From assembly GCA_024679065.1 (NCBI GenBank), contig JAGIQG010000019.1, positions 36,890,001-36,954,000 of the forward strand: DNA of 64,000 nt. Reading direction: 5' to 3'. The position numbers and the translations under genes are program-made. This document shows positions 5,779 to 64,000 of the stretch, in pieces. Numbering within the stretch: position 1 is the first letter of the stretch; every line of letters begins with the position of its first letter. The DNA is from Sphyrna mokarran (Eukaryota). Under the pieces are notes generated by a model. That model was not told the origin of the DNA. It was given only the letters and a program-made list of their open reading frames with translations, and made no database searches.

Positions 5779-5824
5779 ATGGTATTATTTTGCCTTTCCC
5801 TGCAGTTGCTGATAATTCTTGGAG
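5779..5824 (+). CDS. Gene 1 exon 1: signal peptide MVLFCLSLQLLIILG
   Basis: ATG at 5779, 15 mostly hydrophobic codons, donor G|gtaggt at 5825 in phase 1, matching the phase-1 V exon. Confidence 0.75.
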
Positions 5825-5957
5825 GTAGGTGACCTAAGAATGGTATTTTTAGTTTGAAAATTAAAATTGAAGTTAGATGTTAAATAACCATAGAATGTGG
5901 CACCTGTATAGTGAATGATTAAAATAAAAAGTAAAGTTTACTTTAGTTACAAGAGAG

Positions 5958-6205
5958 GCTTACATTAACATTGCAATGAAGTTACTGTAAAATTCCTCCA
6001 GTCCCCCATTCCTGCACCTGTTTGGGTCACTACACCTAACCAGCACTTCTTTCAAAATGTGGGATGAAACCAGAGCACCTGAAGGGAATCTACAACAGAG
6101 GAGAAGGTAGACTCCGCATAGATGGTGACCCAAGCCTCGAATCGAACGCAGGTCCCTGAGGCAGGAACTCTGAGGCAGCAGTGCTAACCACTGTGTCACT
6201 GCCGC
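5958..6205 (-). mobile_element. tRNA-derived HE1-like SINE
   Basis: Reverse complement of cagtggttagcactgctgcctca..gttcgattc head and aacttcattgcaatgttaatgtaagcc tail. Confidence 0.8.
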
Positions 6206-7168
6206 TAAATTACAAATAATGATATTAATAAATTGTCTTTAATTTAATGAGAATATTTTACATAGATTTGAGTTCGACATGACTTATGACTACAAAAACT
6301 ACTGAGTTTTTGGAATTAGATTTTTTAAAACTAGGAGTATTCAATTTGATCTAAACGGATGGTATCTAAATGTATTTCTATATACTTTACGTCAAATTTT
6401 AATTTAATTCTGTAGCATGCCGAAACTTTTCACTGTGTCTCTACTATAAATGTAACTAAAATCTGCAGAGAACTGATGTAGACTTTTTAAAATAAGCATT
6501 GTACGTGCTAGAAATTTGTTGTTTTATACAAAATAAAGTATTCAATTTACAGATACTTAAATCTTTTGTTGCGTGTGCCCTTCGTGAGCTAGCCATCCAT
6601 GTTCCCAAATTTTGCTAACATTGACTATCATTCCGTACTATGTATATCCTCATATAATACTTGCTGTTCGTACAGTGCGCTTTTAGTAAAATACCATAAT
6701 ATTCTCAGTTATCAAGCTGGGTACTGATAATAAGTTTTCATTCTATGCTGCCTTGCATTATTATAACGCGTTACGGCTATGTTGTAAAAACTGATTATTT
6801 GACGCATAACGACTATATTTTGAGCCCGGTGTTGTACTTATTTCGCACACAATCGGGTAATTTGTGACAATCCCCGTTCCTTCAATACTGCTTAATACAT
6901 AATACTAAATTCCTCTCTCTATGTTTAACACCTGGAAGAATGTCTTTAAAATTATACGCCAATAAGATTGAAAATACAAAATGTAGAGGAACAGACACAG
7001 CGAGCACATTGTGAACCATAAAATATTTCATTTTGTATTTGAACAAAGAAATGAAGCGTTAACGCTCCAATGAAAATAGGAGAGGCGTTTCACATATTCA
7101 CTTTCATTGCTAATAATGCACAGTGGGATTTTGACTCTCTGACATTACGTTGTATTACTCTTTTCAAG

Positions 7169-7516
7169 CTGGACAAAGTTTACAGCAGCCTAAAAATCTT
7201 TCTATCACAAAAGGAGACTGGATCGTGTTAAATTGTTTCTACTCGGCACCTCGTCTGCAAAGATTTGAAGCATGGTGGGTTTTCCAAAACGACCACCGAT
7301 GTCCTCTCAAGACCATTGCAAATTTATCCTCCAATAGACCCCAAGAGATTCATTCTCGATATTCTGCAATACACAACTCCAGTCAGAAAGCATTCACTTT
7401 AAGGATAATTGATGTTCAAGTCAACGACACTGGAGTCTATCGCTGTGAAATGTTTAAGATCTCACCTCCACCAACTGGTAAAGTAATAGGAAAAGGAACG
7501 GCGCTGCAAGTAATTG
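7169..7516 (+). CDS. Gene 1 exon 2: VJ-type IgV domain, CD28/CTLA-4/NKp30/SIRP-like
   Basis: Acceptor ttttcaag|, donor g|gtaact. Encodes QQP..GDWIVLNC..AWW..FTLRI..DTGVYRC-EMFKISPPPTGKVIGKGTALQVI, with canonical V-set C/W/DxGxYxC and a J-like GxGT in the same exon. Confidence 0.93.
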
Positions 7517-7919
7517 GTAACTATATCACTATATAACTTTATAAATTAGATTTCGTACTATGTTGTTTTACACATTTGTATAAACTTCAACTGAAGTAAA
7601 TTTTGTACACTTTTTTGTCAGTCATAGAGATGTGAGTGCTCAGGTTTGATAGTCCGTGGCGAATTGCCCCTATCAAGACGTTAGCGGTGCTATAATTGAT
7701 CTCAGTGTCCCAAGGCTTGAGAGGTTCCTACCCTTGATCTTTATCAAGTTTTCCAGATGGACGTGCATATAAATTATATTGGTGGAAGACAGAATCCGGG
7801 TCTCCATAGCAGAACAACTTCGTGATTTCCTAGGTTCGCGCATGAGGAATATTCACAGGTGAGATGTTGGAGGGAACCTTTGGAGTAGTACCCCAGCAAA
7901 CAGTCAGTTTCCAGAGTTA

Positions 7920-11544: not shown

Positions 11545-11585
<41 letters not shown>
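11545..11585. repeat. (TG)n(TA)n microsatellite
   Basis: Directly visible. Confidence 0.9.
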
Positions 11586-11712: not shown

Positions 11713-12024
11713 TTCAACCATCTCTTTGGCTATTTGCATCGTCTGATGAAGCAGCATATTCACCTTCACTTATTGTCACATGCTCAGCATATAGATTCTA
11801 TCCAAATGTTATCACAATGATGTTCCAGACAACCTGTGTTATCAATCAATTCACCAATGAAAGCTCACTCAACCTCGATGGAACCTACAACCATACAGCA
11901 ATGATTAACATCTCGACCAAAGCCTGCACAAACTCAGCCAAATTCACTTGTGTTATTCAACATCCAGCATCACAATCCAAGATACAGCATACTATCAGCA
12001 TTGATGCACACAAAAGAGATGAAG
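11713..12024 (+). CDS. Gene 1 exon 3: Ig C1-set domain
   Basis: Acceptor ataaccag|, donor g|gtaaga, phase 1-1. Encodes VQPSLWLF..VTCSAYRFYP..NLDGTY..FTCVIQHPAS, with C1 hallmarks CxAxxFYP, NxDGTY, FTCxxxH. Confidence 0.92.
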
Positions 12025-16437: not shown

Positions 16438-16545
16438 GTCATAATGGACATCTCAGGGTGTCAACACTCATTTTACTTTCCATATGTAGCGGAACAGCTT
16501 GCATTATTCTTCTTGCGCTCTTCTTTCTCAAAAAATGTGCATGTG
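16438..16545 (+). CDS. Gene 1 exon 4: stalk + transmembrane (GHNGHLRVSTLILLSICSGTACIILLALFFLKKCAC)
   Basis: Acceptor tttacag|, donor g|gtaagt, phase 1-1; hydrophobic stretch followed by KK stop-transfer; no charged residue in the TM. Confidence 0.88.
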
Positions 16546-19738: not shown

Positions 19739-19812
19739 AAAGAAAAGGAACTCAAGAACAAAAACGAACTCAAGCTAATCATGGAAGATTGTACCATAGG
19801 CAAGATGACACG
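19739..19812 (+). CDS. Gene 1 exon 5: cytoplasmic (ERKGTQEQKRTQANHGRLYHRQDDT)
   Basis: Acceptor ttttatatag|, donor acg|gtaacc; open in phase 1 and exits in phase 0, bridging exon 4 to exon 6. Confidence 0.7.
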
Positions 19813-21106: not shown

Positions 21107-21229
21107 GATGAGAACAATGGAAATAATATCTACTATGCAGAACTGGAATTAGGAAACTTGCAGAAACTAAGAAGAAAGGAAGAGGAGGTTGTCTACAGCA
21201 CAGTGTTTTTTTCAAAATCTGGTGAATAG
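21107..21229 (+). CDS. Gene 1 exon 6: terminal exon with two ITIMs (DENNGNNIYYAELELGNLQKLRRKEEEVVYSTVFFSKSGE*)
   Basis: Acceptor tttttgcag|, phase 0; IYYAEL (21128-21145) and VVYSTV (21188-21205) fit [IVLS]xYxx[LV]; stop TAG 21227-21229. Confidence 0.87.
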   Translation, partial: DENNGNNIYYAELELGNLQKLRRKEEEVVYSTVFFSKSGE

Positions 21230-21249
21230 GAAGAAAACCCAACAAATAC

Positions 21250-21950
21250 TAACAAAGAACAAAGAACAGTACAGCTTAGGAAACAGGCCCTTCAGCTCTC
21301 CAAGCCTGCACCACTCATTGGTCCAACTAGACTACTTGTTTATATCCCTCCATTCCCAGTCTGTTCATGTGACTATCCAGGTATGTCTTAAATGATCCCA
21401 GGGTGTCCGCTCCACCACCCTACTTGGCAGTGCATTCCAGGCCCCTGAGTTAAAAAGGTCCCTCTGATAGCTGAGTTAAACATTGCTCCTCTCACTTTGA
21501 GCCTGTGACCCCTCATGATCATCACCTCCGACCTGGGAAAAAGCTTCCCATTGTTCATCCTATCTATGCCCTTCATAATTTTGTTCAATTCTATTAGGTC
21601 TCCCCTCCATTCTCCATCCTTCCAGGGAGAACAACCCCAGTTTACCCAATCTTTCCTCATAGCTAAGACCCTCCACACCAGGCAACATCCTGGTAAACTT
21701 CCTCTGCACTCTCTCCAAAGCCTCCACGTCCTTCTGGTGGTGTGTGGTGACCAGAACTGGACACAGTACTCCAAATGTGGCCTAACCAACGTTCTATACA
21801 GCTGCAACATCAGACTCCAGTTTTTATACTCTATACCCTGTCCTGTAAAGGCAAGCATGCCATTTGTCTTCTTCACCATCTTCTCACCTGTGCTGCCACC
21901 TTCAAGGATATGTGGACTTGCACACCTAGCTTCCTCTGTGTTTCTCTACT
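21250..21950 (-). mobile_element. CR1 LINE 3' fragment, just downstream of the gene 1 stop codon
   Basis: ORF 21388-21879: LQLYRTLVRPHLEYCVQFWSPH; (aacaaag)n tail at ~21250. Confidence 0.9.
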
Positions 21951-23134
21951 GTCGATGGTTCTCTGTGTTTCTACACTCTTGATGGTTCTGGCTTGAAACC
22001 TCTTACCATGTTTACCATGCTTACCATGTTCAAGTTAAACTAGTCACAACAGCAGTCAACTGGAATTTAAAAAAAGCCAAAGCAAGTATTTTGCCATGGG
22101 CATGTCCTACTGAAATGAAGCAAAACCTTTAACCTTCTGAGTACCATATTCATTTGAAACTTATTTGTTAATTAACAGTTAAAAATAAACAAGAATCATC
22201 TGGAAAAAAATCTTAAATCAAACTGCTACATCTAAATTCTTCTTTGTAATCATTCTCACAGCTTTTCCACTTCCATTTTCTTGGAATTGGATAGTTAGCT
22301 GTGTGTTGTAATTAGACTTTAACTTATATGTGCTTTTGTACTCTGATTATACATGTTTGTATATTTTTTTTCTACATGTGTACCTGGTGCCTGAGTGCTC
22401 CATTTGTCTCTGTGCAGTCTTTGTGTACTGCATATGGTCTAGCTGGGTTTTCACACTATGTATGTGATCTCTGCAAGTGTTATTTTTGTCCATGCAATGG
22501 TTTGCAGTGCGGTGTGGGATTTAAATACATATTTAAATGCTGCAACTAGAATTTAATCAAAATTGTTACATAACGACTCAGGTGAAGATTTTTACATGAT
22601 AAGGGCACAGGAAGTGAAGTAGACAAGGAACGTAATTTCATCCTGCTGCTCCTTTGCCAGTGCCATGCCATCCCCAGGCCATTTTCAGGAAGTTGTTGGG
22701 TATAGAATAGCTGCTTGCAGCAAGTAGTGGTGGCATGTTAAGTCAATTAACAAGCCATTTAAAGCTTGTACCAGAGAGCACTGGGATTTTCCAGTTGGGC
22801 TGTAAGCTCCTTGTGGCGTCAGAATAAGTAATTTGCCTGCCTGCAGAGGGCCTGAATTCTGGGGTGATTTTTGAGTCCCGTTCATCCACCTTTTCACAGC
22901 CAAGACAGCAAACTACTTGTCCAGCAACTATGGCTATTTTTTTCCTTTCAAATGTTTTATAAGTGCTGGGAAGGTGCCTAAGTGGAGGGACTCTCTTTCT
23001 CCCTTCTGTCAATAGCCATATTATGATGGCCACTGGATATTGTCAATAGATCTCCCCATGGGCCTCCTCGAATACAAGCTCCCTATTAAGCAAGTGGAGG
23101 CTCGCCAATAAAGAGGGAGCATTGGTGGGGGTGT

Positions 23135-24490
23135 AAGAACATAAGAAAAAAGAGCAGGAGTGGGCCATCCAGCCCCTTAAGCCTGCCCGCCATTCAGTAA
23201 GATCATGACTGATCTGTAGTAGTTCAGTACCACTTTCCCGCTTTCTCTCTGTATCCCTTAATTCCCTTGTCAATCAAAAACTTATCCACTCTTGACTTGA
23301 ACATATTTAGTGAGGAAGCTTCCACCACTTCATCAGGCAGAGAATTCCAAAGATTCACCACCCTTTGCATGAAGAAATTCCTCCTCAACTCTGATCTGAA
23401 CCGCCCCCCCCTCCCCCAATCTTAAGGCTGTGCCTTCTAGTCCTGCTATCTTTGCTAAGCAGGAAGAGTCTCTCAACCTCTACCCTATCCATCCCCTTCA
23501 TTATCTTATACATCTCTATAAGATCCCCTCTCAGCCTTCTAAACTCCAAAGAGTACAAACCTAGCCTATTCAGTCTCTCCTCATAATCCAATGCCCTCAT
23601 TTCCGGTATCAGCCTAGTAACCTTCTCTGTACCCCCTCCAAGGCCAATATATCCTCCCTCGAATGCGGCGACCAAAACTACACACAGTACTCCAGCTGCA
23701 GCCTCACCAGTACCTAGACAGCTGCAAAAGTACCTCCCTACTTTTATATTCTACCCCCCTAGCTATAAGGGCCAACATTGTATTCACCTTCTTAATCACC
23801 TGCTGCACCTGCAGACTGTGTTTTTGCGATTCGTGCACAAGGACCCCCAGGTCCCTCTGCACTGTAGTATGCTGCAGCTTTTCATCATTTAAATAGTAAT
23901 CCTTCCTACCATTAGTCTTACCAAAGTGGATAACCTCACACTTGCTAACATTATACTCCATCTGCCAGGTCCTCGCCCATTCATTCAACCTATCCAGATC
24001 CCTCTGCAGGCTTTCCACACCCTCCACGCAATTTGCTTTTCCACTCACCTTCGTGTCATCAGCAAATTTCATCACCCTGCACTCAGCCCCTTCCTCCAGA
24101 TCATTTATGTAAATGGTAAATATTTGAGGCCCCAGCACTGAACCCTAGGGCACTCCACTAGTCACCAGCTGCCAATCAGAATAGCACCCATTAATACCTA
24201 CTCTCTGCTTCCTATTAGACAACCAATTCTCTATCCAGTCTAACACCCTATCCCAACTCCCTGCACCCTAATCTTCTGCAGCAATCTTTTGTGAGGCACC
24301 TTATCAAATGCCTTTTGGAAATCCAAAAACACCACATCCACCGGCTCCCCTCTAGTCACTTCCTCATAGAACTCCAATAAATTCGTCAAGCACGACTTCC
24401 CTTTAACAAATCCATGCTGCGTCTGCCTGATCAAACAGATCGTATCCAGGTGCCTCGTTATTTCTGCTTTGACGACAGATTCAAGCATTT
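23135..24490 (-). mobile_element. CR1 LINE RT fragment
   Basis: QHGFVKGKSCLTNLLEF, DFQKAFDKVPH, KFADDTK in the ORF track; frameshifted. Confidence 0.92.
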
Positions 24491-25004
24491 TTCTGGGTGG
24501 ATTCAAATCAGCCAGGTGCACTCAGGCTGGCAGTCAAAAGACTTTGGGACTGATCTATACTCTGTGGCCACTGAGCAGCACTTTGAGTATATTGTCAATG
24601 AAGGGTGATGGTGACAGAGTACTGGCCTTGATAAGATTGTTAGAGGCAGGCTACAGCTTCTTTAGTACTGGGCAGCTTTCTATTGGCTCTCCCACTTCAA
24701 GTGCCTGCCTGCATGCCAACCTTAATTGGAAGGCAAGTGTGCCCTCTGGTTGCTATTTGGCAGTTCAGCAAAATTCAATTTTGGGTTGCTGCTCTTTACA
24801 GCGTTGAGTCAACCCTGCACTTGATACCAATGTCAGGCTCTTGACTGTAAGTAGAAAATCCCTCTTTTGGAATAGTTTTTAACATATAAGAAAGTATTAT
24901 ATTATCAATTAATCTATTAGCTTTCTTTCACATTTTAATTTGTTCTGCGGGCCTAATTTGAATATTACTGCACATGGCTTAATGCTTTTACTTTGTGGTT
25001 GAGC

Positions 25005-25522
25005 TGAATGCTTAAGAACATTAACATACAGAGGGATCTGAGCATGCAGGTCCACAATTCCCTAGAAGTGGCAACACGGATGGTCAAGGTGATTAAGAAA
25101 GCAAATGTTATGCTTGCCTTCATCAACCAGGCACCGAGTACAAGAGTTGGAAAATCATCTTGCAGTTATATAAAACCTTGGTTAAGCCGCATCTGGACTA
25201 CTGCGTGCAGTTCTGATAGCCACACTACCAGCAGGACGTAGAAGTTTTGGAGAGAGTGCAAAGAAGGTTCTCCAGGATGTTGCCTGGTCTTGAGGATGTT
25301 GGCTATGAGGAGAGATTGAATAAACCAGGGATGTTTTCACTGGAAAGATGAAGGTTGAGGGGAGACCTGAAAGAGGTCTATAAAATTATGAGAGGTACAG
25401 ACAGGATGGATAGTCAGAGGCTTTTTCCCAGGGTGGAAGTGTCAATTACAACAGGGCACAGGTTCAAGGTGAGAGGAGGAAAGTTTAAGTAAGAAGTGCT
25501 GGAGAAGATTTTCACTCAGAGA
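25005..25522 (+). mobile_element. CR1 LINE 3' RT fragment
   Basis: QRDLSMQVHNSLEVA..KKANVMLAFI. Confidence 0.85.
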
Positions 25523-26616
25523 TTGTTAAGATTATTTTTATTTTTAAAAGGCCACAGTTATCTGGCTAACATCCTGTAGGGGTAACCCCTTCAGGATATA
25601 GATAGTGGCCACAGACATGGTCCAGCAGCTCTTAAGAGTCGGGCCCGATGGTTAACATAATTGGCCTGAGGGGTGGCTGACCAATCCGACCAAAAATTAC
25701 CCTGATAGAAAATGGTCCAGGTCAGAATGGTGGCAGGAACCAGCATGGAAACCAGCACTGTGAAACTTGTCTGCCCCGAATATTGACCCTAACCAATTTG
25801 AAAACGTGACCCATGATTACAATGTGACCAAGATTGGGAACTAAATATTCCAGGTACTTATCATTTTGAAAAGATGGGAACAACAGAAAGAAGGTGAGAG
25901 GAGTGGGAGAAATGGTGAGACTAATGGCTTTCTTCTTGATATTGGTGGGAAGTGGAAGGGTGGTCCGCTAGCAATCTGCCCGAGATCAGTGGGAAGGAAG
26001 GGAGGTCTGCTGCCATTCTGCCTGTGATCCTGTTACTAAAGAATAGCATAAGGACATTGCTGGGAAGGGATGGAGATTCTAATGATCATCAAGCAAAATT
26101 GATATGGGTATAGGCAAGTAGTTTACAGACCCACTAACACTGCCTTTTCAGTTCGATGAAGCATGAATCTGTAAATAGTACATGTTTATAAGCAAAATAA
26201 TACAATAACCATGGGGACTTTATCTTTAAGATTGAGATTGAAAGAACTGAAATTAAAGAGATAATCTGGAGCATGAGATCAGTAGGGGGAAAGTGTGTCA
26301 GGGGCTGTGATATAATTACTAAAATGATATATTGAGGAACCAAGAGATAGCACTAATTTAGATCCTGTATTTTATAATGAAATAGAACCAATTAGTAATC
26401 TCTTAATAAATTATCCTATGGGCAGTGTAATTATAATATCATAGAATTTCACATTCAATCTGAAAGTGAGAAAATTAAATCCAAAACACGGGAGTTAAAC
26501 TTCAAAGAAGTCAACCATGTATGTATGTAATTATAGTTAGTAATCGATATTTGTTTAGCAAGTTGGCTAAAATTGATTGGAAAAATAGACTAAAAATTTT
26601 GAAAATAGATATGCCG

Positions 26617-27517
26617 GGCCCTATTTTACCATATTGATTCTAAATGCTGGTCAGACTTGAAACGGGAGTGTTTCAGATCTGACTTTTAGATCTGTTTTCA
26701 GGTGCTCCCATACCTACTCTGCCTGCAAAAAAATTCTGAAGCGTGCTGCAGAAACCTGAGGGCAGAGCTTAACATGCCCAAAATCCTGCAGCTCTGATCA
26801 GTATCTCTAAGTGCACACGCATAGAAAAAAAAATGATAGAATATAGCTCCCCTATAACAACCCTCCTGGGCCAGACAATGTCTTCCCACCCCCCCCGGCT
26901 CTCACAGACAATGCCCCATCCCCAAAACATTACTGACCCCCTTATCCCTACAGGCCTTCCACCACCCAAACCAATTGCGGGCCCTTGCCTCCCCTTCCCC
27001 CCCTCCAATGATCTCAGGCAGAGTGGCAGTGGGCCCCCCCTTCCCTGTCACTGACTCAGGCAGCGTAGCAATGGACCTTCCCTTTCTCCTCACTGATCTC
27101 AAGCGGACTGGTAGCAGACCCCCCACTCCCTCACTGATCTCAGGAAGAGAAGCAGCGAACCCTCTTTCCTATTCACTGATCTCAGGCAGAATGGCAGCAG
27201 ACCCCCCTTCCACCCGCCACCGATCTCAAGAAAGGAGCCAATTGACACTGCCACCGCGCACTCCCCCCCCCCGGCACACGATCTCAGGCAGAGAGTTGTC
27301 AGATGCTCGGCACTTATCTCCTTATTAACTTGAACACCCAAATCGAACTTTTGTAAAGCATGTCGCCGAAATGCATGCAATTTTTTTTTAAGCATTTAAA
27401 TGGCCATCACACCCAGTTTCGGGTCTTAGAAAAGGGGGAACTGGCACAAAGGTGGGTCAGATCACGATACTCACTTCATGTCTGACTCCCCCAAGTTTAC
27501 ACACCTAAAATCGGGCC
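26617..27517. mobile_element. Non-autonomous TIR element (Harbinger-like) with an internal ~42-bp tandem repeat
   Basis: TIR ggccctatttta (26617) / taaaatcgggcc (27506-27517), 11/12 match; about 7 copies of actgatctcaggcagagtggcagc.. at 27007-27300. Confidence 0.65.
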
Positions 27518-28346
27518 TGTTCTCTCCAACGTTTGAAGAAATTATCTAAAATTCAGAGGAAAAGTAATCCACCTCTGGTTTACTGAAAGAAGTTAAGGGT
27601 TGTTTGAAATAGTAAAGTAGTAAACTAGATTTAGAAACCAGCAAAGGACAAACAAATTATGGAAAAAGTAGAAGATGAGAATTAACTAGTACATAATATA
27701 AAAATAGATTGTAAGAACTTCTACAAGTATATAAAAAAAGGAAATAGTGAAATTAAAAGCCACGATTTCTATCCCTTAGCCAGGACAATGGAAACCGAGA
27801 TGGGATATAATGAAATGTTAAACAAATAGTTTGCAACCAACTTGAGGTCAGGTGAATTAGTCATGATAAATAGTGCTGTTATGGGAATAGGGTGGGAAAG
27901 GGGACCTGGGTAAGATACTCTATCAGAGATCAGAGCAGACCTGATGGGCTAAATGGTCTCTTTCTGCACTGTGGGGATTCTATGATTCATCGTAGCGTCC
28001 ACTAAATAAAAATCAAAAACAATGTTAATATCTGTGGAGGAAAAATACTTGAGAAACTAATGACACTAAAAGCCACTAAACCTCTTGAACTGATGAATAA
28101 TATTCAAAGAGATGACTGCAAAGACAATTACTGCTATTTTACAACCTCGCTCAGATGAAGTTCATAAAATCCTGCTTGAGGCCAAGGGAGAATTCTGTTC
28201 TAAATTTACCTGTTAAAATCCCTGTCAATAAGCAGAATTTTCTAATTTTGAGGCTGTAACAGTAGTGGGCCTTTAATAAATGTGTTTGTGTCATGTTTCT
28301 TGTTCAGGATCTGTTGAATCAGTTTGTTTTATTCTCAATATCATTT

Positions 28347-29067
28347 TGTAACCGGCAGCATCTGTTGTTACTGCAGTAGCAAAATTGATCTTAATTGCTA
28401 CAATGTTTGTTTTCATCTGGCCTAATACTGTTGATTTTTTTTTGTTCCCCTGGGATTTTGTAGGCCAGAGGTTGTTTAGATTGATTCATGGGTGAGGTCA
28501 TATGACTGGGAATTAGGCTTACACAGAGAACTTGAGTTCAGTCTGGTTTTGGGATCTTTAGAGAGAGGTTGCTTTCTCTATCTCTTTTTTTTCTCTGGAT
28601 TTGGAGACAAGAATCTGCCAGGAAATAGTCTCTTTCTCTGAGATTCTGCTATTTCAAGTGGATCTTTCTCTGGAAGTTACTGTATGAGAATTAGAAGACA
28701 GGTATCTGTCTGGGCTCTGTCCAGAGGTGGTAGAAGGCTGAAAATCTAGTGCAGACTGGTTCTGAAGAAGGGATTTATGTCTATGGGCTACTGCTTAAAT
28801 TGGAACAATAAAGAGAAATAGCGATTAAGAACTACACTTTGTCATGTTTAAGTATTTTAATTGGTAAAAGCTATGCTAATCCTTTTTGTTATATTCTAAA
28901 TGCATTCTTAAATAAAGTTTGTTTTGTTAAAAGGCTTCGTAGTGGTCATTTGAATCACATCTGTTGTGAAATACTTTGTGCTCAACCTAATGCCAAAATC
29001 AAAAAGAAAAGTTAGGGTCCAGGCTAATTTCATAATATTCATTGGAGTTTCTGATCCAATCCTAACA
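28347..29067 (+). mobile_element. Possible solo LTR
   Basis: Starts tgtaac, ends cctaaca, internal aataaag polyA-like signal; no TSD found. Confidence 0.35.
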
Positions 29068-29184
29068 GAGACCAAATGTAGTGGTGGATGGATACTGCAT
29101 GGTAGGAAATCGTGCTCAATTTTGCACTCATTTGCTCATTAATTATGGATAGATGAGCTTCTCGGGTCAGGAATTGATTTGCCT

Positions 29185-29465
29185 GCCCTGACGTCACAGT
29201 GGTTAGCACTGTTGCCTCATACCATCAGGGATCCGGATTCAATTCCCGGGTTAGATCACTGTCTGTGCAGACTCTGCACATTCTCCCCTGTATGGGTTTC
29301 CTCCCATAGTCCAAAAGATGTGCTGGTTAGGTGCGTTGGCCATGCAAAATTCTCCCTTAGTATACCTGAATAGGCGCCAGACTGTGGCAACGAGCAGATT
29401 TTCACAGTGACTTCATTGCCGTGTTAATATAAGCCTACTTGTGGCACGAATAAATAAACTTTAAA
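29185..29465 (+). mobile_element. HE1-like SINE
   Basis: cagtggttagcactgttgcctca head, ggattcaattcc B-box-like, aataaataaact tail. Confidence 0.8.
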
Positions 29466-29939
29466 CTAATGGGCATTAAGGCCCAGCACCATACCTAAAT
29501 GCCAACTTTACTGTCTTCAGTTCAGTTCTCAGAAGATGTGCAGAGATAGTAGTGGCAAAGAAGAAAGCTGCTCGCGGTTCTGCAATGACCCCTAGAAATT
29601 CAGATAGGTGATGCACATCAATTTAAGGACACCTCTACCTAAGGATGGTTCTAGGATGCCCCTAGCGTCACTGTGCTCGCATAGGAGGCCATTATGAGTA
29701 CATGGAGCAACCTAGTGCAATCTAGTGCAAGAAGAGATGCATGATCCCATCTGCTCCTCTAGGGTAGATCAACCTTCTCTTCACTCCAATATCATACTAT
29801 CATAATGGCATCATGCATTCAAAGGGTCACACTGTTTAGCAATCTTATACAATATTAGCAGGGGATACATCACCACTGATTGTGTCACGTGAACTTTAGC
29901 ATCACCAGCATCTTGTCTATCATCCTGCATAAATATCAA

Positions 29940-30365
29940 GACGCACAAAATGACAAAGGTTGTGAACGAAGCTCGAGCCATCACGCAAACAAGCCTCCCA
30001 TCCATTGATTCTGTTTACACTTACCGCTGCCTTCAAAAAGCAGCCAGCATAATTGCAGACCCCTCCCACCCTGGACATATTCTCTTCCAAGTTCTTCTGT
30101 CAGAAAAGATACAAAAGTTTGAGATCACATACCAACCAACTCAACTGACTTCTTCCATACTGCCATAAGACTTTTGAATGGATCTATCATTTATTAAACT
30201 GATCCTTCTCTATATCTTATCTATGACTGCAACACTATATTCTGCATCCTCTCCTTTCCTTCTCCCCGATGAACTCAATGAACGGTATGTTTTGTCTGTA
30301 TAGGGCACAAGAAACAATATTTTTCACTGTATCTCAATAATGTGACAATAATACTCAAAATCAAA
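29940..30365 (+). mobile_element. Rex1/Babar LINE 3' fragment
   Basis: KVVNEARAITQTSLPSIDSVYTYRCLQKAASIIADPSHPGH. Confidence 0.8.
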
Positions 30366-41060: not shown

Positions 41061-41572
41061 TCGAAGGCTGGCCGATTATTGGTAGGGAGTAGACCTTGAT
41101 GAATATTACTCCTAAAGAGAGCTGGTGCAAATATGATGGGCTGAGTGGCCTCCTCCTGTGCTGATTCAATACTTTGGCGGATAGACAAGGGTATGGTGGC
41201 GGGGGAAGTAGCAGGTAACTGTAAAATTCCAATTCTCGACAAAAGCTCTGTGATCTTTAAACGCCTTTAACTATCTGTCACTTGTGGGTGGGTAGCCCTG
41301 CTCTACTTCTTCCCGGCCATTTTGCTCCTGGGAAAATAGCTCTGGGGAAAGATGCGGTCGGCAAAACGAATTTTCGCAGCCGTCTCTGCATTCAACTCCC
41401 ACAATCCTGCCCAGTTGGAAAATCTCGTCTTTTCAATATCTTTAATTTTTATTTACTGCTCAGCCGGGGTCCAAAAGCTAGTAGCTGACGAGCAGATATC
41501 TGCAATTTTATAGATACGAATTATTTACAATAGCCGCTTCCGGGAGTTTGGGGGTGACGGTTATTCATGTTT

Positions 41573-41859
41573 AGTTTCGATTTTGAATCTCAATACAGGG
41601 AGCTTGGTTAAACTGAGGCAGCTTCTGCAATCGCCAGAGCAGAGAATGAATTCTGTAGAGGAGCTAATAACGTCCTTGTAGGAAAGGGAATCAACAGAAC
41701 CTGCAATTCAGAGCTCTGTGTGTTTTTATATTTGCAGCAATGTACAGTTCAAACTTCGTTTCACTCTGACACTGTGACCACTTCCTCTCACGTTCTGATA
41801 AATCGAAACCAAGAAACTGAAAATAAACAACGCAATTCGTTAATGGAGAAGTGAAGAAG
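41573..41859 (+). promoter_or_regulatory. Candidate promoter and non-coding first exon of gene 2, with an IRF/ISRE cluster
   Basis: GAAACTGAAA 41813-41822, CTTCGTTTCACT 41754-41765, AGTTTCGATTTT 41573-41584; CpG-richer flanks (~41280-42360); donor aag|gtaaat at 41860; the gene 2 ATG exon has an acceptor, so an upstream exon is required. Confidence 0.5.
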
Positions 41860-42431
41860 GTAAATTTATGAAATTAAATTGCCCAAAATCATAGATTTTG
41901 CAACATTTAGAGAAGTTTTATAAGTAAATGTATTTTTTTAATCGATGGTTCATGTTAAATATTTATCTTGAAGTTTTACAAGTTAGTTTCATTTTTGCAA
42001 TGTTCACCCCAACAACGACGACGATGGTTCTGAATGTAGGGCTGAAAGCGACTCCGGGATACTGACCTGAATTTCCTGCTCCCTGGGACTGGAGGACAAC
42101 GGACCTCACACTGATTTTATGCTGAGGCCATGAACCTCGGCACGAAGTCCGCCCTTCCCCCCAAGTGAGGCTCTTAACCTGCCAATTAGTGGCCACTTTC
42201 GAGCCTCAAATTTTAGGCAAAAGGGCGGATGGAAGCTCTGTGGAAAATCCAGAACTAAAAGCTGGAATTCCTCAGTCTCATACGCACCAACGACAACGGA
42301 GAAAGGCCAAATTTCCATTCGCGGCAGTGGGATCTGATTATCAAAGCTATAGATGAGGCCGGACATCTATAGCTTTCAGATATAAAAGCTATATCTGAAC
42401 AAAGATATAGGAACAAAGGACAAAGGAAATG

Positions 42432-42634
42432 CAGTAAGAATTCTCACAACACTAGGTTAAAATCCTGTTTGGAATCATGAGCTTTCAGAGTGCTGCTCTT
42501 TCATTAGATGACACCTGATGAAAGAGCAGCGCTCCAAACACTTGTGATTCCAAATAAACCCGTTGGACTATAACCTGATATTGTGAGACTTCTTACTGAG
42601 CCCACCCCAGTCTCAACGCTGGCATTTCCACATT
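42432..42634. mobile_element. Short Penelope-like foldback (~80-bp arms) with a hammerhead-like core
   Basis: cagtaagaa..cacaaca / ttgtgagacttcttactg inverted; ctgatga-aagagcagcgctcc-aaac from 42515. Confidence 0.7.
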
Positions 42635-42865
42635 AAAGAAGTTCAACTTTGGGTGGGAACTCATCAACAGAAGCCCACTTCCGAGGTATGATAGTGCTGT
42701 TTGGAAGGGTTTAAAGTAGTGTGGCAGGGGGTGGGAGTCAGAACAGGAGACCAGTAAGTGTAGGGACTGAAGAAGAAAATGAGACTAAGATAAACATAAT
42801 TCAAAGTAAAAGCTGGCTGAGGAAAGTTGCAGGGCTCTTCACGGATATTTTCATATCCACTTTGA

Positions 42866-44100
42866 CTTGATTTGATATATTATTGTCACATATATTATCA
42901 TACAGTGCAAAGTGTTGTTTCTTGCATGCAGTACAGACAAAACATATCATTCATAGGGAAGGAAATGAGAGAGTGCAGTATTACAGTCATAACTAGGGTC
43001 TAGAGAAAAATCAACTTAATGCAAGATAAGTCTATTCAAAAGTCTGACGGCAGCAGGAAAGAAGCTAGTCTTGAGTCGGTTGGTACGTGATGTCAGACTT
43101 TTGTATCTTTTTCCAGAAGGAAGAAGGTGAAAGAGAAGAGTGCAAGAGGTCCTTAATTATGCTGGCTGCTTTGCCAAGGCAGCAGGAAGTATAGACAGAG
43201 TCAATGGATGGGAGGCTAATCTACGTGATTGATTGGGCTATATTCACAACCTTTTGTAGATCCTTGCAGTGTTGGGCAGAGCAGAGCTCTGCCAAGCTGT
43301 GATATAAATAGAAAGAATGCTTTCTATGGTGCATCTGTAAAAGTTGGTGAGAGTTGTAGCTGACATGCCCAATTTCCTTAGTCTTCTGAGAAGGTAGAAG
43401 TGTTGGTGAGCTTTCGTAACTATAGTGTCGGCATGGAAGGACCAGGACAAATTGGTGATCTTACTGATCAGATCACCCATATTTTCCTCCAGATCATTTA
43501 TATATATATTACAAATAACAGATCCCAGCACTGATCCCTGTGGAACACCATTAGCTATCTCGATCCTTTCTACTTTGTTCCCATTGATGTAGACAGGAGC
43601 ATATTTTCCTTTCCTGAAGTTGATGACAACATCCTTTGTTTAGGTGACATTGAGGGAGAGATTATTGTTGCCACTCTCATCACATTTTCTGTCTCATTCT
43701 TGAGGTCTATCTCATTGAAATCCGACCCAGTACAATGGTGTCGTCAGCAAATTTGAAAATCAAATTGGAGGGGAATTTGGTCACACAGACATAGGCGTAT
43801 AAGGAGTATGTATTGTAGGGGGCTTATGGGGCACTAGTATTGAGGATGATCGTGGGAAAAGTGTTGTTGACTATCCTTACTGATTATGATCTGTGAGTTA
43901 GGAAGTTCAGGATCCACTCACAGAGGGAGTGCCGAGACCCAGGCTACGGAGTTTGGAGATAAGTTTTGTGAAAATAATAGTGTTGAAGGCTCAACTGTAT
44001 TCAACGAATACAAGTCTGACACAGGTGACCTTGTTATCTAGATGTTCTAGGGTTGAGGGTGGGGCTAGGGAAATAGAATCTGCTATGGACCTGTTGTGGC
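42866..44100 (-). mobile_element. Rex1/Babar LINE fragments, with a short CR1 piece at ~43460-43555
   Basis: KAHQHFYLLRRLRKLGMSATTLTNFYRCTIESILS; FKFADDT on the minus strand. Confidence 0.85.
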
Positions 44101-44104
44101 AGTA

Positions 44105-44555
44105 CGACAGGCAAGATTCTACAGGACTGGAGAATAGCCAATGTTGTTCCCTTCTTTAAGAAAACAAGCAGGAATGATTCAGCAAATTGTAGGCTAGTGA
44201 GCCTAATGTCAGTGGTGCAAAAGCTTTTGGAGAAGATACTGAGATACGGGATATGTGCACATTTGGAAGAAAATGAACTAATTAGTGCCAGACAGCATGG
44301 TTTTGTATGGAGAATGTCATGTCTCACCAACTTGATTAAGTTTTTTGAAGAGATAACAAAAGTAATTGATGAGGGAAGGGTTGTGAATGTTGTTTATTTG
44401 AACTTTAATAAGTTTTGACATGGTCCCATGTGGCAGACAGATACAAAAACTAAAATCACATCGGATTCGGGGCTGGTTAAATGGATACAGAACTGGCTTG
44501 GTAATAAAAGACAGAAAGTAGTGGTGAAAGAGTGTTTTTCAGAGTGGAGATTTGC
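44105..44555 (+). mobile_element. CR1 RT fragment
   Basis: RQHGFVWRMSCLTNLIKFFEE; WIQNWL. Confidence 0.85.
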
Positions 44556-47076
44556 AGCAAATCACACCATGCTGCCACTGCCGGCAAGAGCGGAAAACTT
44601 AGTGTTCAGCCAAATTTCCATTCAATGCAGCAGGACGTATGTGTTCCCCACTGACTCCAACTGAATGGTGAAGCCAACCTCCCATCTCTGGAAACATGTC
44701 TCCCTGGGACCCATCCTCCAGGAGATTTTCTCCAGGATCATTTTCCAGAAGTTTTCTCCAGGACGCATCCTCCAGGCACTTTTCTCTGGGACTCAGTTAT
44801 TTTCACAAGTGTACATGGATTTTAACGATACACAAGTTACACAATATACCTTGTGCCATAATGATCTCAACAAACATGCACTTCCTGTAACCCAACAGGC
44901 TACTGTGATCAGACAACATCCATTCCAAATGGCAGATGCCACTCAATTGAACTGTGGATTTCTCCCAAGTTCCACACATCAACACAACCACCCCCCCCCT
45001 CCCCCGCCAACATGTTGGATTATTGTCACACAAGTCCACTCTCAAAAAGACATGCTTTAAAATCTTCTTTTACACAATCGCTTCCTCAGTTGAGCTGTTT
45101 TCATCAAAGATCTGCTTCCAGATTTTCCTTTCAGTATTCCTCTGTCTTGAATTGCCACAACAATGAAATTTCTACAAAAATACTCAGGTACTCAGTCCCC
45201 AACAGACAATTAATGTCGACACATTAACCAACTGGACATAATTTTCTGACACATTTAACTCTTGGTTTAAGCTTTTTTAAACCATTAGCAATTTGCCAAG
45301 TGACAGCAACCAAGGAAGCCACAGACTATCATTATTCTGGGACAATCCAAGATTGTCAGCAGAGTTCCCTCAGAGGTATTCTTGAGAGTGAGTAAATAAG
45401 GCAAGTGAAGAGCAAATAAATTCTTTATTTAACAAAAGTGGTCTACTGGAGAGCCCAGATATAAGTGACTAGTTAATAGTCAGTTTTTTTACAACTGAAA
45501 AGTGTAGAAGCTAAGAGCCAGATTTGTGATTTTAAAAGAGCAATTTTCTCTATCTCTTAGCTAGGAAATTGTAACTCTCTATTACTTACTAACTTAGTAG
45601 TTAAAACTAGATAAACCAACTAATTAATGGAACAGAAACAATCTATTTAATTAAAAAATCAATCAAATAAGTAAACTACAGGCAATGGATGTATTAGGGA
45701 AGATAATGTATTATAACTGCCACATGTTGGAGTTTGTGGACGTTTATCTGTGAGAAGTATCAGCAGATCAAGTACAATTCAGCTCAGAATTGTTAAGCTG
45801 CAGTCTGGGCTGCAAATGTTGCAGAGTTGGAGTGGGTGGATCCATGAAAGGATGAACTAAAAGCAATGTGGGAAATGTCAAGGCTCTGGAACAGAATAAT
45901 ATTTTGGATAAAACTAAGCAGAGTGTGTCGAGAAAGGACAAATAGTTAAGGGGCAGTGGTAGCAATGGGGGGGTTTGGAGAGGGGGAGGCGTTGGAGCCT
46001 CAGCTCGCCTTGTGAAGCCAGCTGAGATCATGGGACGCCATTACATAGGCACCCTGATCTCACCACCCTTGCAGAGTTCAACTTACTCTCCCCGATCGTC
46101 GCTCCCACTGATGAACCCCCCTACCCTTCCCTCTCAGGCACTGCCCTTGAGGCCCTACCTCCTTGGCACTGCTAAGATTCTCAGTGGGCAAGCCCAGGGT
46201 GCCTGGCTGGCACTGTCCCACTAGCACTGCCCAGCCCTGCCCCTCAGTACTGGGGGGCATCAGTGGTCTCCGGTGCCACTGGCAAGACCATCACATCAGA
46301 TTTTCATTGGTGGGGACTGTCTATGATTCTTGCCAGTGAGAACCTCGACTGACAAAGGGATTGAAGCAAGTGAGCCAATATGGCAGCATCCAGGACTCAT
46401 TAATGACATGTAAATCGTCTCATTAATATTGAAATCAGCTTCACCTTCTTTCTGAGCACAAAGCTGATTTTGCTGGCAGACGGTGTCGTAAGAGACCAGA
46501 AACTGGGCACAAACCTGATTTTCACCTCTAATCCTATCTTTCTGGCTTGCCACGCCGATCAATTAATAAGATCACACCCAAGAAGTTTATAGGATATGAA
46601 CAACTAAGATGATGTCAGACAAAATTAGAACAAAGCTAAAGGCACAGTATCTGAATGCACAAAAGCTTTGCAACAAATTAATGAAAGAGAGCGAATTAAT
46701 AGGTTTGATGTCATAGCAATTACAAAAACATGATTGCAAAGAGATCAAGACTAGGAAGTAAGCATTCCAGGATACTTCACTTTTAGAAGGTAAATTGAAA
46801 ATCGATGACACAAAAGTTTGGGAAAAGACAGTAGAGAGAAAGACTGTTAGCTCAAATAATACAAAAAAGGATCAGTTTGGGTGAAGCAAGAAACAGAAGA
46901 GAGAAGTAAACCCTTCAACTTACAGCAGAGAAACTTGATAATGTGAAATGCTTTTCTGCTGCTTTGTTTATTGTCAGTCTCTCTGGATATATATATTAGC
47001 CACAAATCTTGAATAGGTGCTTGGAAAAACAATGAAATTACTCATTCTTATTTAATGGGTTTTTATTTTTCAGGCC

Positions 47077-47137
47077 ATGGCGAATCCACTGTGCATCATG
47101 CTGTTGTCACTTCTCTTCCTCCAGCAGTTTCTTTTCG
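47077..47137 (+). CDS. Gene 2 leader exon: MANPLCIMLLSLLFLQQFLF
   Basis: Strong acceptor ttttttatttttcag| (exon starts 47074), Kozak gccATGg, hydrophobic core, donor g|gtaagg in phase 1 matching the V exon. Confidence 0.75.
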
Positions 47138-50106: not shown

Positions 50107-50454
50107 GTGAGGGATCTTTCTCTCGGGTTAATGGAGTCTCAGGTAAAGACATATTGCTGCCCTGCACTTTTCCTGTTGCAGTCAACTTCAGTCTGAAGGA
50201 TCTTGTCATTACCTGGCAGCAAACACTCAGTCTAATCGTGGTTCACAGCTTCTACAGTGTGAAAAATCATCCAGAATATCAAGACTCAGCGTTCAGGGGA
50301 CGGACTGAGCTGTTTCCCCAAGAATTCCACATTGGGAATGCTGCCCTGAGACTGAAAGGAGCAACTATGTCAGACCAGGGCAACTACACATGCTTCGTAA
50401 TTCAACAGGATGGGAAAGGCTACTTTGAGAGTGTGGTGGAACTGGAATTATATG
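50107..50454 (+). CDS. Gene 2: B7-family IgV domain (CD276/HHLA2/VTCN1-like)
   Basis: Acceptor ttttttattag|, donor g|gtgagc. Encodes GKDILLPCTF..LVITWQ..VVHSFY..YQDSAFRGRTELF..GNAALRL..DQGNYTCFV, the characteristic B7/butyrophilin V signature. Confidence 0.93.
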
Positions 50455-56634: not shown

Positions 56635-56793
56635 ATGAACCTCTGATTCCTGGAATTGATGACAAAAATCCAGCTTTGGAAAGAAAAAAATTAGCATTAC
56701 CACTGGGGCTCTCAACTGGAACTCTGATTATTTTTATTGCAGTCGGATTTGGAATTCATAAAAAGCAAAACAAGAAGCAACAAAATCCTGAGA
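56635..56793 (+). CDS. Gene 2: stalk + transmembrane + juxtamembrane exon
   Basis: Acceptor tctatcctag|, donor a|gtgagt, phase 1-1; DEPLIPGIDDKNPALERKK-LALPLGLSTGTLIIFIAVGFGI-HKKQNKKQQNPE. Confidence 0.85.
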
Positions 56794-60557: not shown

Positions 60558-60587
60558 AAATGCCTTTACTGATAGACGCCGTGGAAG
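60558..60587 (+). CDS. Gene 2: 30-nt cytoplasmic micro-exon (KMPLLIDAVE)
   Basis: Strong acceptor ttattttgttttttcag|, donor gaag|gtaatg, phase 1-1, frame-preserving. Confidence 0.65.
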
Positions 60588-61464
60588 GTAATGTTCTGTT
60601 TTGTGTTCGTCTTAGATTCTAGAATTTACAATGCTACTGCAACTGCCCACGATAACAAAATTCGTTTTGAATCCAATTTTCCAAAAAGAATCTCACTCAC
60701 TGCTGAATGAACAATGGTGACATGTTTGATTTTGTAATTTAGCCAGGCAAAAATAGAATTCTTACCATTAAGTAACTTGAACTTGGACTCCATATATTAA
60801 AGGAGATTAAAAACTATAGACATACGTCAGTTTTAAGCTATGTATATTGAGAACACATTAATAAAATGGACTTACCAAGTTTACTCCTTTCAGAACACAT
60901 GAACAGTCTAATAGATAATTGCAGTTCAATTTTCTCCCAAAAGCATCTGTCAACATTCATGGACAAATAGGAAGAGAGGTTTCCTTTAAGACATTGATAA
61001 TGTCATCTGGATGTCCTACCCCACACCGTACATTGATGAGAAATCTGACTTAGTTTTCATGCTTCTTTAGTTCTTCCAAATAATTCTTTGGAATGCTCTT
61101 CTACAACCTAGTCTCTTGGAGAGTAACCACATTCCATTGAACTCTGCTCTGAGTATTTCAGCTTTGATCACTTAATCCTGCAGCATTTTATACATCTATA
61201 AATTAGACATAAATTAGGATTCAACTACAGGTTCAAATCAGATAATCTTTTCTCACATGTTCCATTTGACAGTCTGGTTATGAAATTGAGATTGTCCTTT
61301 TGTGTTGAATAACAAGGTCATGTGATCTTTTGAACGTAGGACTTAGAAGCAGGATTAGGCCATGTGATCTTTTCAGCCCGCTCCACCATTCAATAAGATC
61401 CTAGCTGGTTTTGTGTTTAAATTTTTTTTCTTTCCTGTCTGGCCATCATGACCCTTGACTCATT

Positions 61465-61591
61465 GGGTGGAATTTTCCTGTCCTGTCCACCACAGGAATT
61501 GTGGCAAGCGGGACACAGACCATGCAAAGATCCGTTGACCTTGGGCAGGATTTTCCAGCCTTGGGATAAGCGCAGCCGTAAAATCCCACCC
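61465..61591. mobile_element. MITE (127 bp)
   Basis: TIR gggtggaatttt / aaaatcccaccc, 11/12 match. Confidence 0.55.
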
Positions 61592-63739
61592 TATATCTAT
61601 CAAATCTCTAACTCTCCCTTCAATAAATCCAGTGACCAGGACTTCACTGCTTTCTGGGAAAAAATTTCTACGTACTTAAGACCATCAGAAAAACATTTTT
61701 TCCTCATCTGTCTTGAAGGAAAGGCCCCTCGTTCTTAAACTGGGGTTCTCATTCCAGCCTCCACCACATTTTCCCAATCCAGTTTCCTTAGAGTCTTGTA
61801 TGTTTCAGTAATATTACCTCTCATTTTTCTAAATTGCAGTGGGTGTGGGCCAAATCTATACAATAAGTCCTTCATTGTAGGAAAAAGTTGAATGAATCTT
61901 CTCTAAACTGTTTCAAAAACAATAAGATGAGATTCTCCTGAATCGGAACACCAAAGTGTTTCTCATTAGCACATCTTGGAATTCTCCCATCTGATGAATG
62001 CAAATATGTGCATCCAGAGCAACCCACCAGCCAAACAGGCTTCTCAAAGGGGCGGCACTCCTCCCCCACCAAAATGGAAATAGTGACACCCCCCCCCTCC
62101 TCTCAAATTGACCAGGGGTGCATCATCACTGCCTCAGCAAAGACAAGCATCCACCCACAAATAATGTATAGCCTTCCCCCTCATTCAGGCCATGCACCTT
62201 GGCAGTGTCAGTGGTGTATTGCCCCATGGCACTAACATACTGACCTGGAACTTAGGGCCCCAGGGGGGATTAGGGAGATAGGTCCAGTAGTCATGTGCCC
62301 CTCTGCCACTGCCAGACTACAGAAAGATGGTTCCCCAAGGCTCCTGGAGTTGAGTGGATTTGAACTGGGGGCAAAAAGTTGATCTCAACACTTTCTCCCA
62401 ATTTGGGGGTGTCATGGCGGGTCTGCCCCTAATGGCTGACTTGAAGATAACCGTTGCATAGTGATTTCTGACAACTCTGTGATTAACATTTTCATTCCTG
62501 TCAGTTATAAAATTTCGAAATGGCCTAGTCACTTTAACTTCCTTGCCCCCTGGACAGTTGGTAGACTTCTAAATTATTGCAGCACCATTCTGCAGCAGGT
62601 ACTCCCTTTCTGTCAGAAGCGGTAGGTGTGAATGAGTCCTTTGAAGTCCTATGGAAGAGAGGAGATGTCAGTTTCACCAAGGGGATGGGGGGGTGATGGC
62701 TGGGAAAACAGCAGGTGCCACTTTGAAATCGTTTCCTGAGACATTCTCACTGTCAAGTACATTTCCCAGGGATGGACTGAAAAATTCATGTTTGCAAACT
62801 GAATGGAACCGGGCAGTATGTTGTCTTCTGCTCGCAGCCTTTGGAAGCTACCAGTTCCTCAGGGAATGACCCCCTTCTATTCAACTAGTCATTGGAAACA
62901 GAGGCTCCATTACTGGAGGGGATCACTAGCAGCAATGGCCATAACCATGGACAAAATCCTGCCATGAGGGGTTATTCCTTTGCTTCAAGAAGCCTGCCTG
63001 TGATACCCTCTGAAATTTATATTTAAATTTATGCCTTTGAGAATACTTCCATTTTGAAATTCTTGGAGCTGCCAAGACTCTGGAGCTTTTGGCCCTCTGA
63101 CTGAGTTGGTAGATTGCTTTATTCATTTGAACAGTGAGCACAGAAATGGCCAAGTAGGAGGCCACCTTTGGGAAAAGAGCTCACTGGTCAGACTTTAAGA
63201 AATGCAAGCTTAGAACACACAATTGGTCTGGATGTTGGGGGTCAAAATTCTTTCCCTTGAATTTAGTGATCCATTATCCATACTTGATAAGAGACTGGAA
63301 ATGTTTTTCATCTCATGCTGAGATCATTTTAATTTATTTTTCTCAGGATATTTATATTCCATCCATTTGCCCATGTCCCTAAGCTCGAGGGTGAATCCAG
63401 ATACTAAATGGAAGACAGTTCCACAGTTTGTCCTGAAACACGTACTTAGAAGAATCCAAATTCTAAACAGATAATACGGATTGGAAATGAGGGATTCTTT
63501 CGTCTCAGTTCCTGCCCTCATTTCACCATCAAAATTCTGCCCCATTTATCAAATACTGAGAATGAACTAGTAAATATTATAACATTTTAGAATCTAAAAG
63601 GAAATATGCATTTATTAAAAGCTGGCTATGTAACTAATTGAATATCTGCTGCCTCTTTTGGAATTTCATTTCTCCCATGTTTTGTTCATCCATTGTAACT
63701 AACACAAACTCGTTGAGAAATTCAACCATTCCCTTTCAG

Positions 63740-64000
63740 ATGCCATTCAAAGTTTCAAGGAATACACTTTGAGAAACACAGATTGCTTCGACAAGATGTC
63801 ACATGGGACACTCAAAAACTATAGCTCACTTGCCAGAACTGTGAAAGTCATCTCTCCAAAGCAGCAAGACATATTGGACAATATTGTGGGGGCAGGTGCT
63901 TCAGATATTGAGAAAGAAGTGAAAGCTGCGCATCTCCTGTCATTGCCCCAGGAAGGAAACTGCTCTTCAAAGCGAGTCCTGCTAGTAGGTGATGCAGGAG
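63740..64000 (+). CDS. Gene 2 (probable): start of an exon encoding a pre-NACHT region and a partial Walker A of a NACHT/P-loop NTPase; truncated by the window end
   Basis: Acceptor ccctttcag|, phase 1, open to the window end: DAIQSFKEYTLRNTDCFDKMSHGTLKNYSSLARTVKVISPKQQDILDNIVGAGASDIEKEVKAAHLLSLPQEGNCSSKRVLLVGDAG. Absent from the ORF track because it has no stop in the window. Confidence 0.72.

Follow-up and report, generated by a model that had tools for sequence, protein, structure and literature searches.

Two tandem immune-type genes

The DNA analysed here is a 64,000-nucleotide stretch of the shark Sphyrna mokarran (assembly GCA_024679065.1, contig JAGIQG010000019.1, positions 36,890,001 to 36,954,000), to which we refer in its full length as the window. 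A preliminary description had placed in it an inhibitory receptor gene (gene A) and a gene with a B7-like domain (gene B), and the reconstruction of exons and open reading frames (ORFs) shows both to be intact and bears out its view that they lie in tandem on the same strand, here the forward one, 25,847 bp apart from stop to start. Our results indicate that gene B very likely represents a vertebrate family of membrane-anchored NLRs (receptors with nucleotide-binding and leucine-rich-repeat domains), and that its neighbour A is an immunoglobulin (Ig)-type receptor with a predicted inhibitory tail.

From its ATG at 47077, gene B can be followed through five coding exons, all in phase 1, to the end of the window, which falls inside its Walker A motif. 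No stop interrupts these 286 codons, over which the orthologue of Mustelus asterias, the closest named relative, is 91% identical. Among solved structures, the V domain is matched best by VTCN1 (B7-H4; 70 bits, 1.2e-18) and CD276 (B7-H3; 51-55 bits per domain, 4.4e-14), followed at lower ranks by MOG and BTN3A (40-44 bits for BTN/MOG) and by ICOSL and PD-L1 (the latter two at about 1e-8). The label "B7-like" therefore suits the V domain, but gene B is not a canonical B7 gene: in B7 family proteins an IgC domain follows the V domain, and none is present here, the V domain leading straight into a stalk and transmembrane (TM) segment in both the window and the orthologues. What had been called a NACHT-like domain is recognised by Pfam as a real NACHT domain; only its start lies inside the window, and it is complete in the orthologues (2e-23 in the 91%-identical one).

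Gene A comprises six coding exons (5779-21229), every intron of which is bounded by GT and AG, and has a single open frame of 336 amino acids (aa) with the layout leader-V-C1-TM-ITIM-ITIM (ITIM, immunoreceptor tyrosine-based inhibitory motif). Its C1 exon, detected as C1-set by Pfam, had been missed or given no weight earlier, but the designation as an ITIM receptor holds, since two ITIM-type motifs are present in all nine gene A sequences (consensus taken from the accessible part of PMC12151841). Profiles of the V and C1 domains of A and of the V and NACHT-LRR (leucine-rich repeat) parts of B reveal no additional copies within the window. Nor are the two genes recent duplicates: comparing their profiles brought out no more than a generic V-strand match (probability 21).

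Table 1. Features of the window (strand: +, forward;., none assigned)
Feature	Position	Strand	Evidence
Gene A exon 1, ATG and split leader	5779..5824	+	GT donor, phase 1; fits orthologue N-termini
Gene A V exon including J-like G strand; PPP then GxG in CDR3 loop	7169..7516	+	Pfam V-set 2.7e-14
Gene A C1-set exon	11713..12024	+	Pfam C1-set 5.2e-7, above cut-off
Gene A TM exon	16438..16545	+	19-residue hydropathy 2.6; kept in orthologues
Gene A first cytoplasmic exon	19739..19812	+	In frame, AG/GT; tblastn with orthologues
Gene A final coding exon, two ITIMs and stop	21107..21229	+	ORF, orthologue comparison, motif test
Gap between A and B: LINE fragments, other repeats	21230..47076	.	AATAAA at 22184 and 23107
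Candidate gene B promoter and putative non-coding first exon	41000..42400	+	CpG observed/expected 0.6-0.86; GT donor 41860
Gene B ATG and split leader	47077..47137	+	Phase 1 GT donor; fits N-terminus of closest orthologue
Gene B V exon, B7-H4/B7-H3-like	50107..50454	+	Pfam V-set 5e-11
Gene B stalk, predicted TM helix, basic stop-transfer stretch	56635..56793	+	Hydropathy 2.0; 85% identity to closest orthologue
Gene B 30-nt juxtamembrane exon	60558..60587	+	AG/GT, phase 1; brings back orthologue colinearity
Gene B NACHT exon start, cut inside Walker A	63740..64000	+	87% identity over 90 aa to closest orthologue

The probable V-TM-NACHT family of gene B

All seven of the longer proteins that match the V domain of gene B at E 1e-15 (106 candidates) also carry a NACHT domain, and the V-set plus NACHT design is found in nine shark species, cluster members included. 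In the window and in 12 of 14 shark proteins, V and NACHT are separated by a hydrophobic segment (19-residue hydropathy of at least 1.9); the other two proteins are a Stegostoma isoform without the TM exon (P0006) and a whale shark fragment without the V domain. Across nine aligned sharks, two cysteines and one N-x-T sequon of the V domain are invariant, Walker A, Walker B and sensor 1 are all retained, and the linker between V and NACHT, including the 30-nt exon, is conserved. Beyond the window, the shark orthologues continue with HD2 and C-terminal LRRs, after which the family has a conserved helical tail; Pfam detects no CARD, PYD, BIR or acidic effector domain at E 0.001 in four members (P0001, P0005, P0043, P0045). 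Among solved structures, the NLR part is matched best by 5irl, which we take to be NOD2 (E 2e-66), and NLRP3 (1.6e-58). In P0001 (Mustelus), the later LRRs and the tail (residues about 770-969) are strongly divergent from those of the other shark orthologues, a difference that may point to duplication of LRR exons or to a tandem paralogue lying downstream of the window.

Among 1.8 billion representatives, the search returned 149 further rows, 17 of which combine a B-type V domain with NACHT: in 12, a single V domain precedes NACHT (a TM segment being present in 11), one shows the reverse order and four carry other ectodomains. The ten rows that were looked up (two from Discoglossus, the others from Hyperolius, Pleurodeles, Lepisosteus with Atractosteus, Alligator (480 aa), Narcine, Cololabis, Metynnis and one other) place the gene B design in gar, two frogs, a newt and an alligator, with paralogues in a frog. 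In two trees of the NACHT or NLR part, built without the V domain, the shark, gar and amphibian members form one clade with a Shimodaira-Hasegawa-like approximate likelihood ratio test (SH-aLRT) value of 100. These trees (67 and 37 rows) were made by a quick method with SH-aLRT support only, a midpoint root and mostly anonymous outgroup rows; the first omitted proteins longer than 1600 aa, short matches and near-duplicates, the second was hand-picked, and the alligator protein is in neither. Because the shark, gar and amphibian members share one NACHT clade, the fusion of V, TM and NACHT likely dates to early jawed vertebrates.

The Ig-plus-NACHT models of Narcine (P0095) and of the teleosts Cololabis (P0122) and Metynnis (P0142), together with P0158, were considered as family members and rejected, as they fall outside the clade of gene B. 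These vertebrate models have different ectodomains and lie in different NACHT clades, and they stem from independent fusions or from the merging of gene models. A further model, P0051, contains NACHT-LRR-tail followed by V-TM, an order that suggests tandem B-family copies in that species.

Wrong merging by gene prediction has to be weighed for gene B as well, whose V-TM and NLR parts could belong to two separate, neighbouring genes. Short proteins limited to V and TM do occur among assembled reads, the arrangement of P0051 is a sign of merged tandem copies, and the splicing of gene B in the window is predicted from its sequence. However, the window exons of B join in frame and free of stops, conservation of the linker with its 30-nt exon extends over nine sharks, the NACHT exon is preceded by a splice acceptor and contributes no separate effector domain, and gar and amphibian members of the same clade show the identical order. 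We consider such an artefact highly improbable.

Gene A and its relatives

The preliminary description had classified gene A as CD28-like, which is apt for one loop of its V domain but not for its domain composition. The pattern YxCx6PPPx4/5GxG, a signature of CD28X and CTLA4 according to the accessible part of Quiniou et al., 2024 (PMC11599192), is found in the complementarity-determining region 3 (CDR3) of seven of the eight gene A sequences with a full V domain, and YxCx6PPP in all eight. The same source limits CD28 family membership to proteins composed of IgV, TM and tail, so that gene A, with a C1-set exon between V and TM, stands outside the family. The features that it shares with the family as portrayed there (CTLA4, CD28X, CD28HL3, PD-1) are the PPP and GxG loop with CD28X/CTLA4 spacing and tyrosine signalling motifs in the tail, which are of the ITIM type and paired as in PD-1 and CD28HL3. 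It differs in that it has a C1 domain, lacks the YxxxxT dimer motif of CD28, CTLA4 and some CD28X (its TM segment is devoid of tyrosine in the window and in the orthologues) and lacks YxxM and EYEDM in its tail (motif test, nine sequences). Two to five cysteines are located in or around the TM segment of all gene A orthologues, and a disulfide dimer or palmitoylation is possible.

Comparison of the gene A profile with solved structures ranks shark UrIg2 first (1.3e-23), antibody chains next and SIRP alpha fifth, and the C1 domain has its best solved match in a shark IgNAR chain. The predicted V fold of a gene A orthologue is nearest to T cell receptor (TCR) V domains (Z 13.6, root-mean-square deviation 1.9, 106 aligned), nearly tied with other V domains, in a model that is poor overall (mean predicted local distance difference test score 53; about 80 in the V region). 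TCR and antibody V domains lead the fold searches, with no CD28, CTLA4 or PD-1 chain among the matches listed, and the look-alikes in the ESM Atlas are SIRP and other V-C1 clusters. As in UrIg, UrIg2 and SIRP, the leader is split, V and J share one germline exon and a C1-set domain follows. The SIRP ectodomain has the composition V-C1-C1, with two C1 domains in SIRP alpha, and gene A departs from it by its single C1 in the window and in the orthologues. UrIg and UrIg2 are presented in the available portions of PMC10751288 and PMC12227049 as shark genes of the non-rearranging VJ-C1 type; the latter source gives UrIg2 nine C1 domains, whereas gene A has one, together with a TM segment and two ITIMs. 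Going by its exons and motifs, gene A is best described as a predicted inhibitory receptor of the non-rearranging VJ-C1 kind that carries a CTLA4-type loop.

In the literature searched, which leaves most subscription journals outside, no described receptor combines these features, and four gene A accessions are absent from the supplements of PMC11599192. At E 1e-15, gene A has nine matches, all from sharks, with orthologues in seven shark species, and none was found outside sharks among the 8000 candidates scored.

Linkage, possible partnership and meaning

NCBI holds records for both genes in six species, in five of which the A and B records lie on contigs of identical length, taken as one chromosome; in the whale shark, gene B lies on a 25-kb scaffold. 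The distance between the nearest RefSeq numbers of the two genes is 5 in Scyliorhinus torazame, 8 in Heptranchias, 2 in Chiloscyllium plagiosum and 6 in Mustelus, but 488 in S. canicula. Accession order is a proxy for adjacency, and the intervening numbers may belong to isoforms or to other genes. By this proxy, the linkage is apparently kept in several sharks, near-consecutively numbered in four, as the preliminary description would predict, which suggests adjacency of A and B across distant shark orders. Only A was found in Heterodontus and only B in Stegostoma, Hemiscyllium and C. punctatum, and no named orthologue of either gene from rays or a chimaera is among the matches. Because synteny is generally well conserved in sharks, kept adjacency is weak evidence for partnership; most likely, it reflects an old immune-gene neighbourhood that was kept by slow shark genome rearrangement.

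The gap between the genes had been described as containing only transposon debris. A Pfam scan of its frames indeed detected zero further protein genes: among 126 stop-to-stop frames of at least 60 aa, five match reverse transcriptase, three match other families below the cut-off and 118 have no match, the scan being blind to exons of fewer than 60 codons. With the window sequence itself as the reference, 28% of the gap can be masked as repeats. It also includes, however, a CpG-rich patch with a GT donor (Table 1) that is probably the non-coding first exon or promoter of gene B, a reading based on the AG acceptor preceding the ATG of B. Within this patch sit a word that we take to be ISRE-like (interferon-stimulated response element; 41813-41822) and another, presumably ETS-like, near 41780. 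The candidate promoter is possibly interferon-responsive; ISRE-like words are common in the window (10 versus 5.0 expected), so that this one is no evidence alone. An uninterrupted, 5'-truncated reverse-transcriptase frame of 471 aa from a long interspersed nuclear element (LINE) lies immediately upstream of the candidate promoter (39588-41000, reverse strand), and broken reverse-strand frames at 36069-36788 and 48164-48756 presumably are pieces of Harbinger/PIF transposase, the first having no Pfam match. Intron 1 of gene B contains, just past the leader exon, an inverted repeat (47279-47983) with arms of ~340 nt in two parts that are 94-95% complementary. A second CpG-rich patch (6250-7500; observed/expected up to 1.09) covers parts of intron 1 and the V exon of gene A and is a possible alternative promoter or enhancer.

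Based on this arrangement, the preliminary description proposed a two-way checkpoint, in which A on one cell binds the V domain of B on another, A delivering an ITIM-mediated off signal and B a signal through its NACHT domain, with linkage keeping the pair together. Linked receptor-ligand pairs have precedents in CD200/CD200R, CD48/2B4 and NKR-P1/Clr. The B7-type V domain of B and the linkage in sharks are in line with this proposal, as is the CD28X/CTLA4-type CDR3 pattern of A with its invariant PPP (signature from the accessible part of PMC11599192). However, A has a C1 domain and is closer to UrIg2, antibody chains, SIRP and TCR V domains than to CD28-family proteins, and B was kept and multiplied in bony vertebrates, in which A was not found among the 8000 candidates scored.

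The proposed co-evolution of alleles gains no support at the between-species level. Mean identities among five species amount to 0.65 for the V and 0.69 for the C1 domain of A, and to 0.74, 0.72 and 0.81 for the V, NACHT and LRR parts of B. The correlation of distances between the two V domains (0.94) does not exceed that of the controls (0.95 for A C1 and B V; 0.99 for A C1 and NACHT; 0.76-0.89 for three other pairs), the V domains diverging about as their neighbours do. Removal of the NACHT and C1 distances leaves a partial V-V correlation of 0.72, a weak point in favour of the pair given ten non-independent pairs from five species. These correlations neither show nor exclude co-evolution, and there is no sign of fast-diversifying V domains. 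Typical self-recognition loci are fast-evolving and multicopy, whereas the window contains one copy each of A and B, and the V domains of the two show no fast evolution between species. On balance, we find it doubtful that A and B are receptor and ligand, and equally so that they form a two-way checkpoint.

We lean slightly towards the view that B acts at the cell surface as a type I NLR switched on by clustering and that A is a separate inhibitory receptor in an old shared neighbourhood. In this arrangement, the V domain of B would face outward and its NACHT domain inward. Engagement of the V domain by a partner would cause clustering, which would relieve autoinhibition by the LRRs and let the NACHT domains oligomerise at the membrane, with A, the neighbour in sharks, being only a possible partner. 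Because CARD and PYD are lacking, output might proceed by way of the conserved helical tail that follows the LRRs or of cytoskeletal partners, the latter by analogy with a reported sea cucumber receptor. The phosphorylated ITIMs of gene A would recruit SHP-1/SHP-2.

Several points weigh against this picture. The V-TM-NACHT fusion is deduced from gene models and conservation. Isoform P0006 skips the TM exon, and five proteins of 145-214 aa from assembled reads terminate right after the TM segment, without NACHT, so that non-fused forms exist. The gar member and several of those from amphibians do not conform to strict ATPase patterns, and some of these may be inactive as ATPases. In addition, we infer the signalling output of B in its entirety, and a gene A of bony vertebrates that had diverged would escape the search among 8000 candidates.

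Signalling might also run from the inside out. Sensing inside and display outside is the mechanism of BTN3A proteins, and, in a manner resembling BTN3A1, the LRR-NACHT part of B could sense a cytosolic signal and alter the display of the V domain to a lymphocyte receptor, be it A or another. In keeping with such a role, B retains its full LRRs, which among five sharks are more conserved than its other parts (0.81 identity), has no death-fold effector and contains a V domain that also matches BTN3A and MOG. However, the latter matches (40-44 bits) rank below B7-H4 and B7-H3, Pfam finds no B30.2 domain in four members of the B family and no ligand is known, and we regard this alternative as unlikely.

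Chains that unite Ig, TM and NACHT are already known from sea cucumber. According to the accessible sections of PMC8699970, AjNLRC4 binds bacteria through Ig domains on the outside and actin on the inside, promotes phagocytosis and has no LRRs; AjNLR-new has the reverse topology (PMC13133943, in part). Gene B resembles both in that a single chain without a CARD joins Ig, TM and NACHT, a likeness in architecture. AjNLRC4 also has its Ig domains outside and NACHT inside, as predicted for B. As far as these sources go, the two differ from B by the lack of LRRs (AjNLRC4) or an inverted topology (AjNLR-new) and by two TM segments, whereas B has one B7-type V domain, one TM segment, a full NACHT-HD2-LRR module and a conserved tail, and is found in jawed vertebrates. 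By extension, the V domain of B could bind microbes directly, with the cytoplasmic part driving uptake as in AjNLRC4 and A being unrelated, and echinoderm V-set plus NACHT proteins make up the two ESM Atlas clusters that score highest for B (0.92 and 0.90). However, AjNLRC4 is built without LRRs and with two Ig domains and two TM segments (accessible part of PMC8699970), and the V domain of B is as conserved as NACHT (0.74 versus 0.72), which would better fit a host ligand; direct microbial recognition appears very unlikely.

Among vertebrate proteins, gene B shares NACHT, winged helix, HD2 and ribonuclease inhibitor-like LRRs with cytosolic NLRs such as NOD2, NLRC3 and the NLRPs, but a leader, V domain and TM segment replace CARD or PYD, making it a predicted membrane protein, and its NACHT clade is separate. 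With B7-H4 (VTCN1) and B7-H3 (CD276), its closest solved V relatives, it has the split leader and predicted type I layout in common, but it lacks a C domain and carries an NLR tail of about 800 residues in place of a short tail. The literature searched, outside of which lie most subscription journals, contains no description of a vertebrate Ig-TM-NACHT receptor. In their accessible parts, a whale shark genome paper (PMC8455134) treats NLRs as intracellular, with no mention of one that bears an Ig domain, and a survey of vertebrate inflammasomes (PMC11258412) has no match for immunoglobulin or transmembrane. Database entries for the B family bear automatic names, such as NLRC3-like.

The usual view of vertebrate NLRs is that of sensors in the cytosol equipped with death-fold or BIR effectors. 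With its leader, B7-type V domain and TM segment, a conserved family of this kind would be a cell-surface NLR in which the fold of an adaptive co-signalling ligand is coupled to an innate ATPase switch; frogs, newts and gar are open to its study. Gene A, as a membrane-bound VJ-C1 receptor with ITIMs and a CTLA4-type loop, bears on the relation between the CD28 family and antigen-receptor precursors. A tentative possibility, which we hold to be improbable, is that an early jawed-vertebrate membrane NLR with a B7-ligand ectodomain persists from sharks to alligator and has, in sharks, the neighbouring TCR-like ITIM receptor A as its counter-receptor. In this case, a single contact between A and B would silence one cell and fire or prime an NLR in the other, and the two genes, if their products bind, would constitute a bidirectional checkpoint with a new layout.

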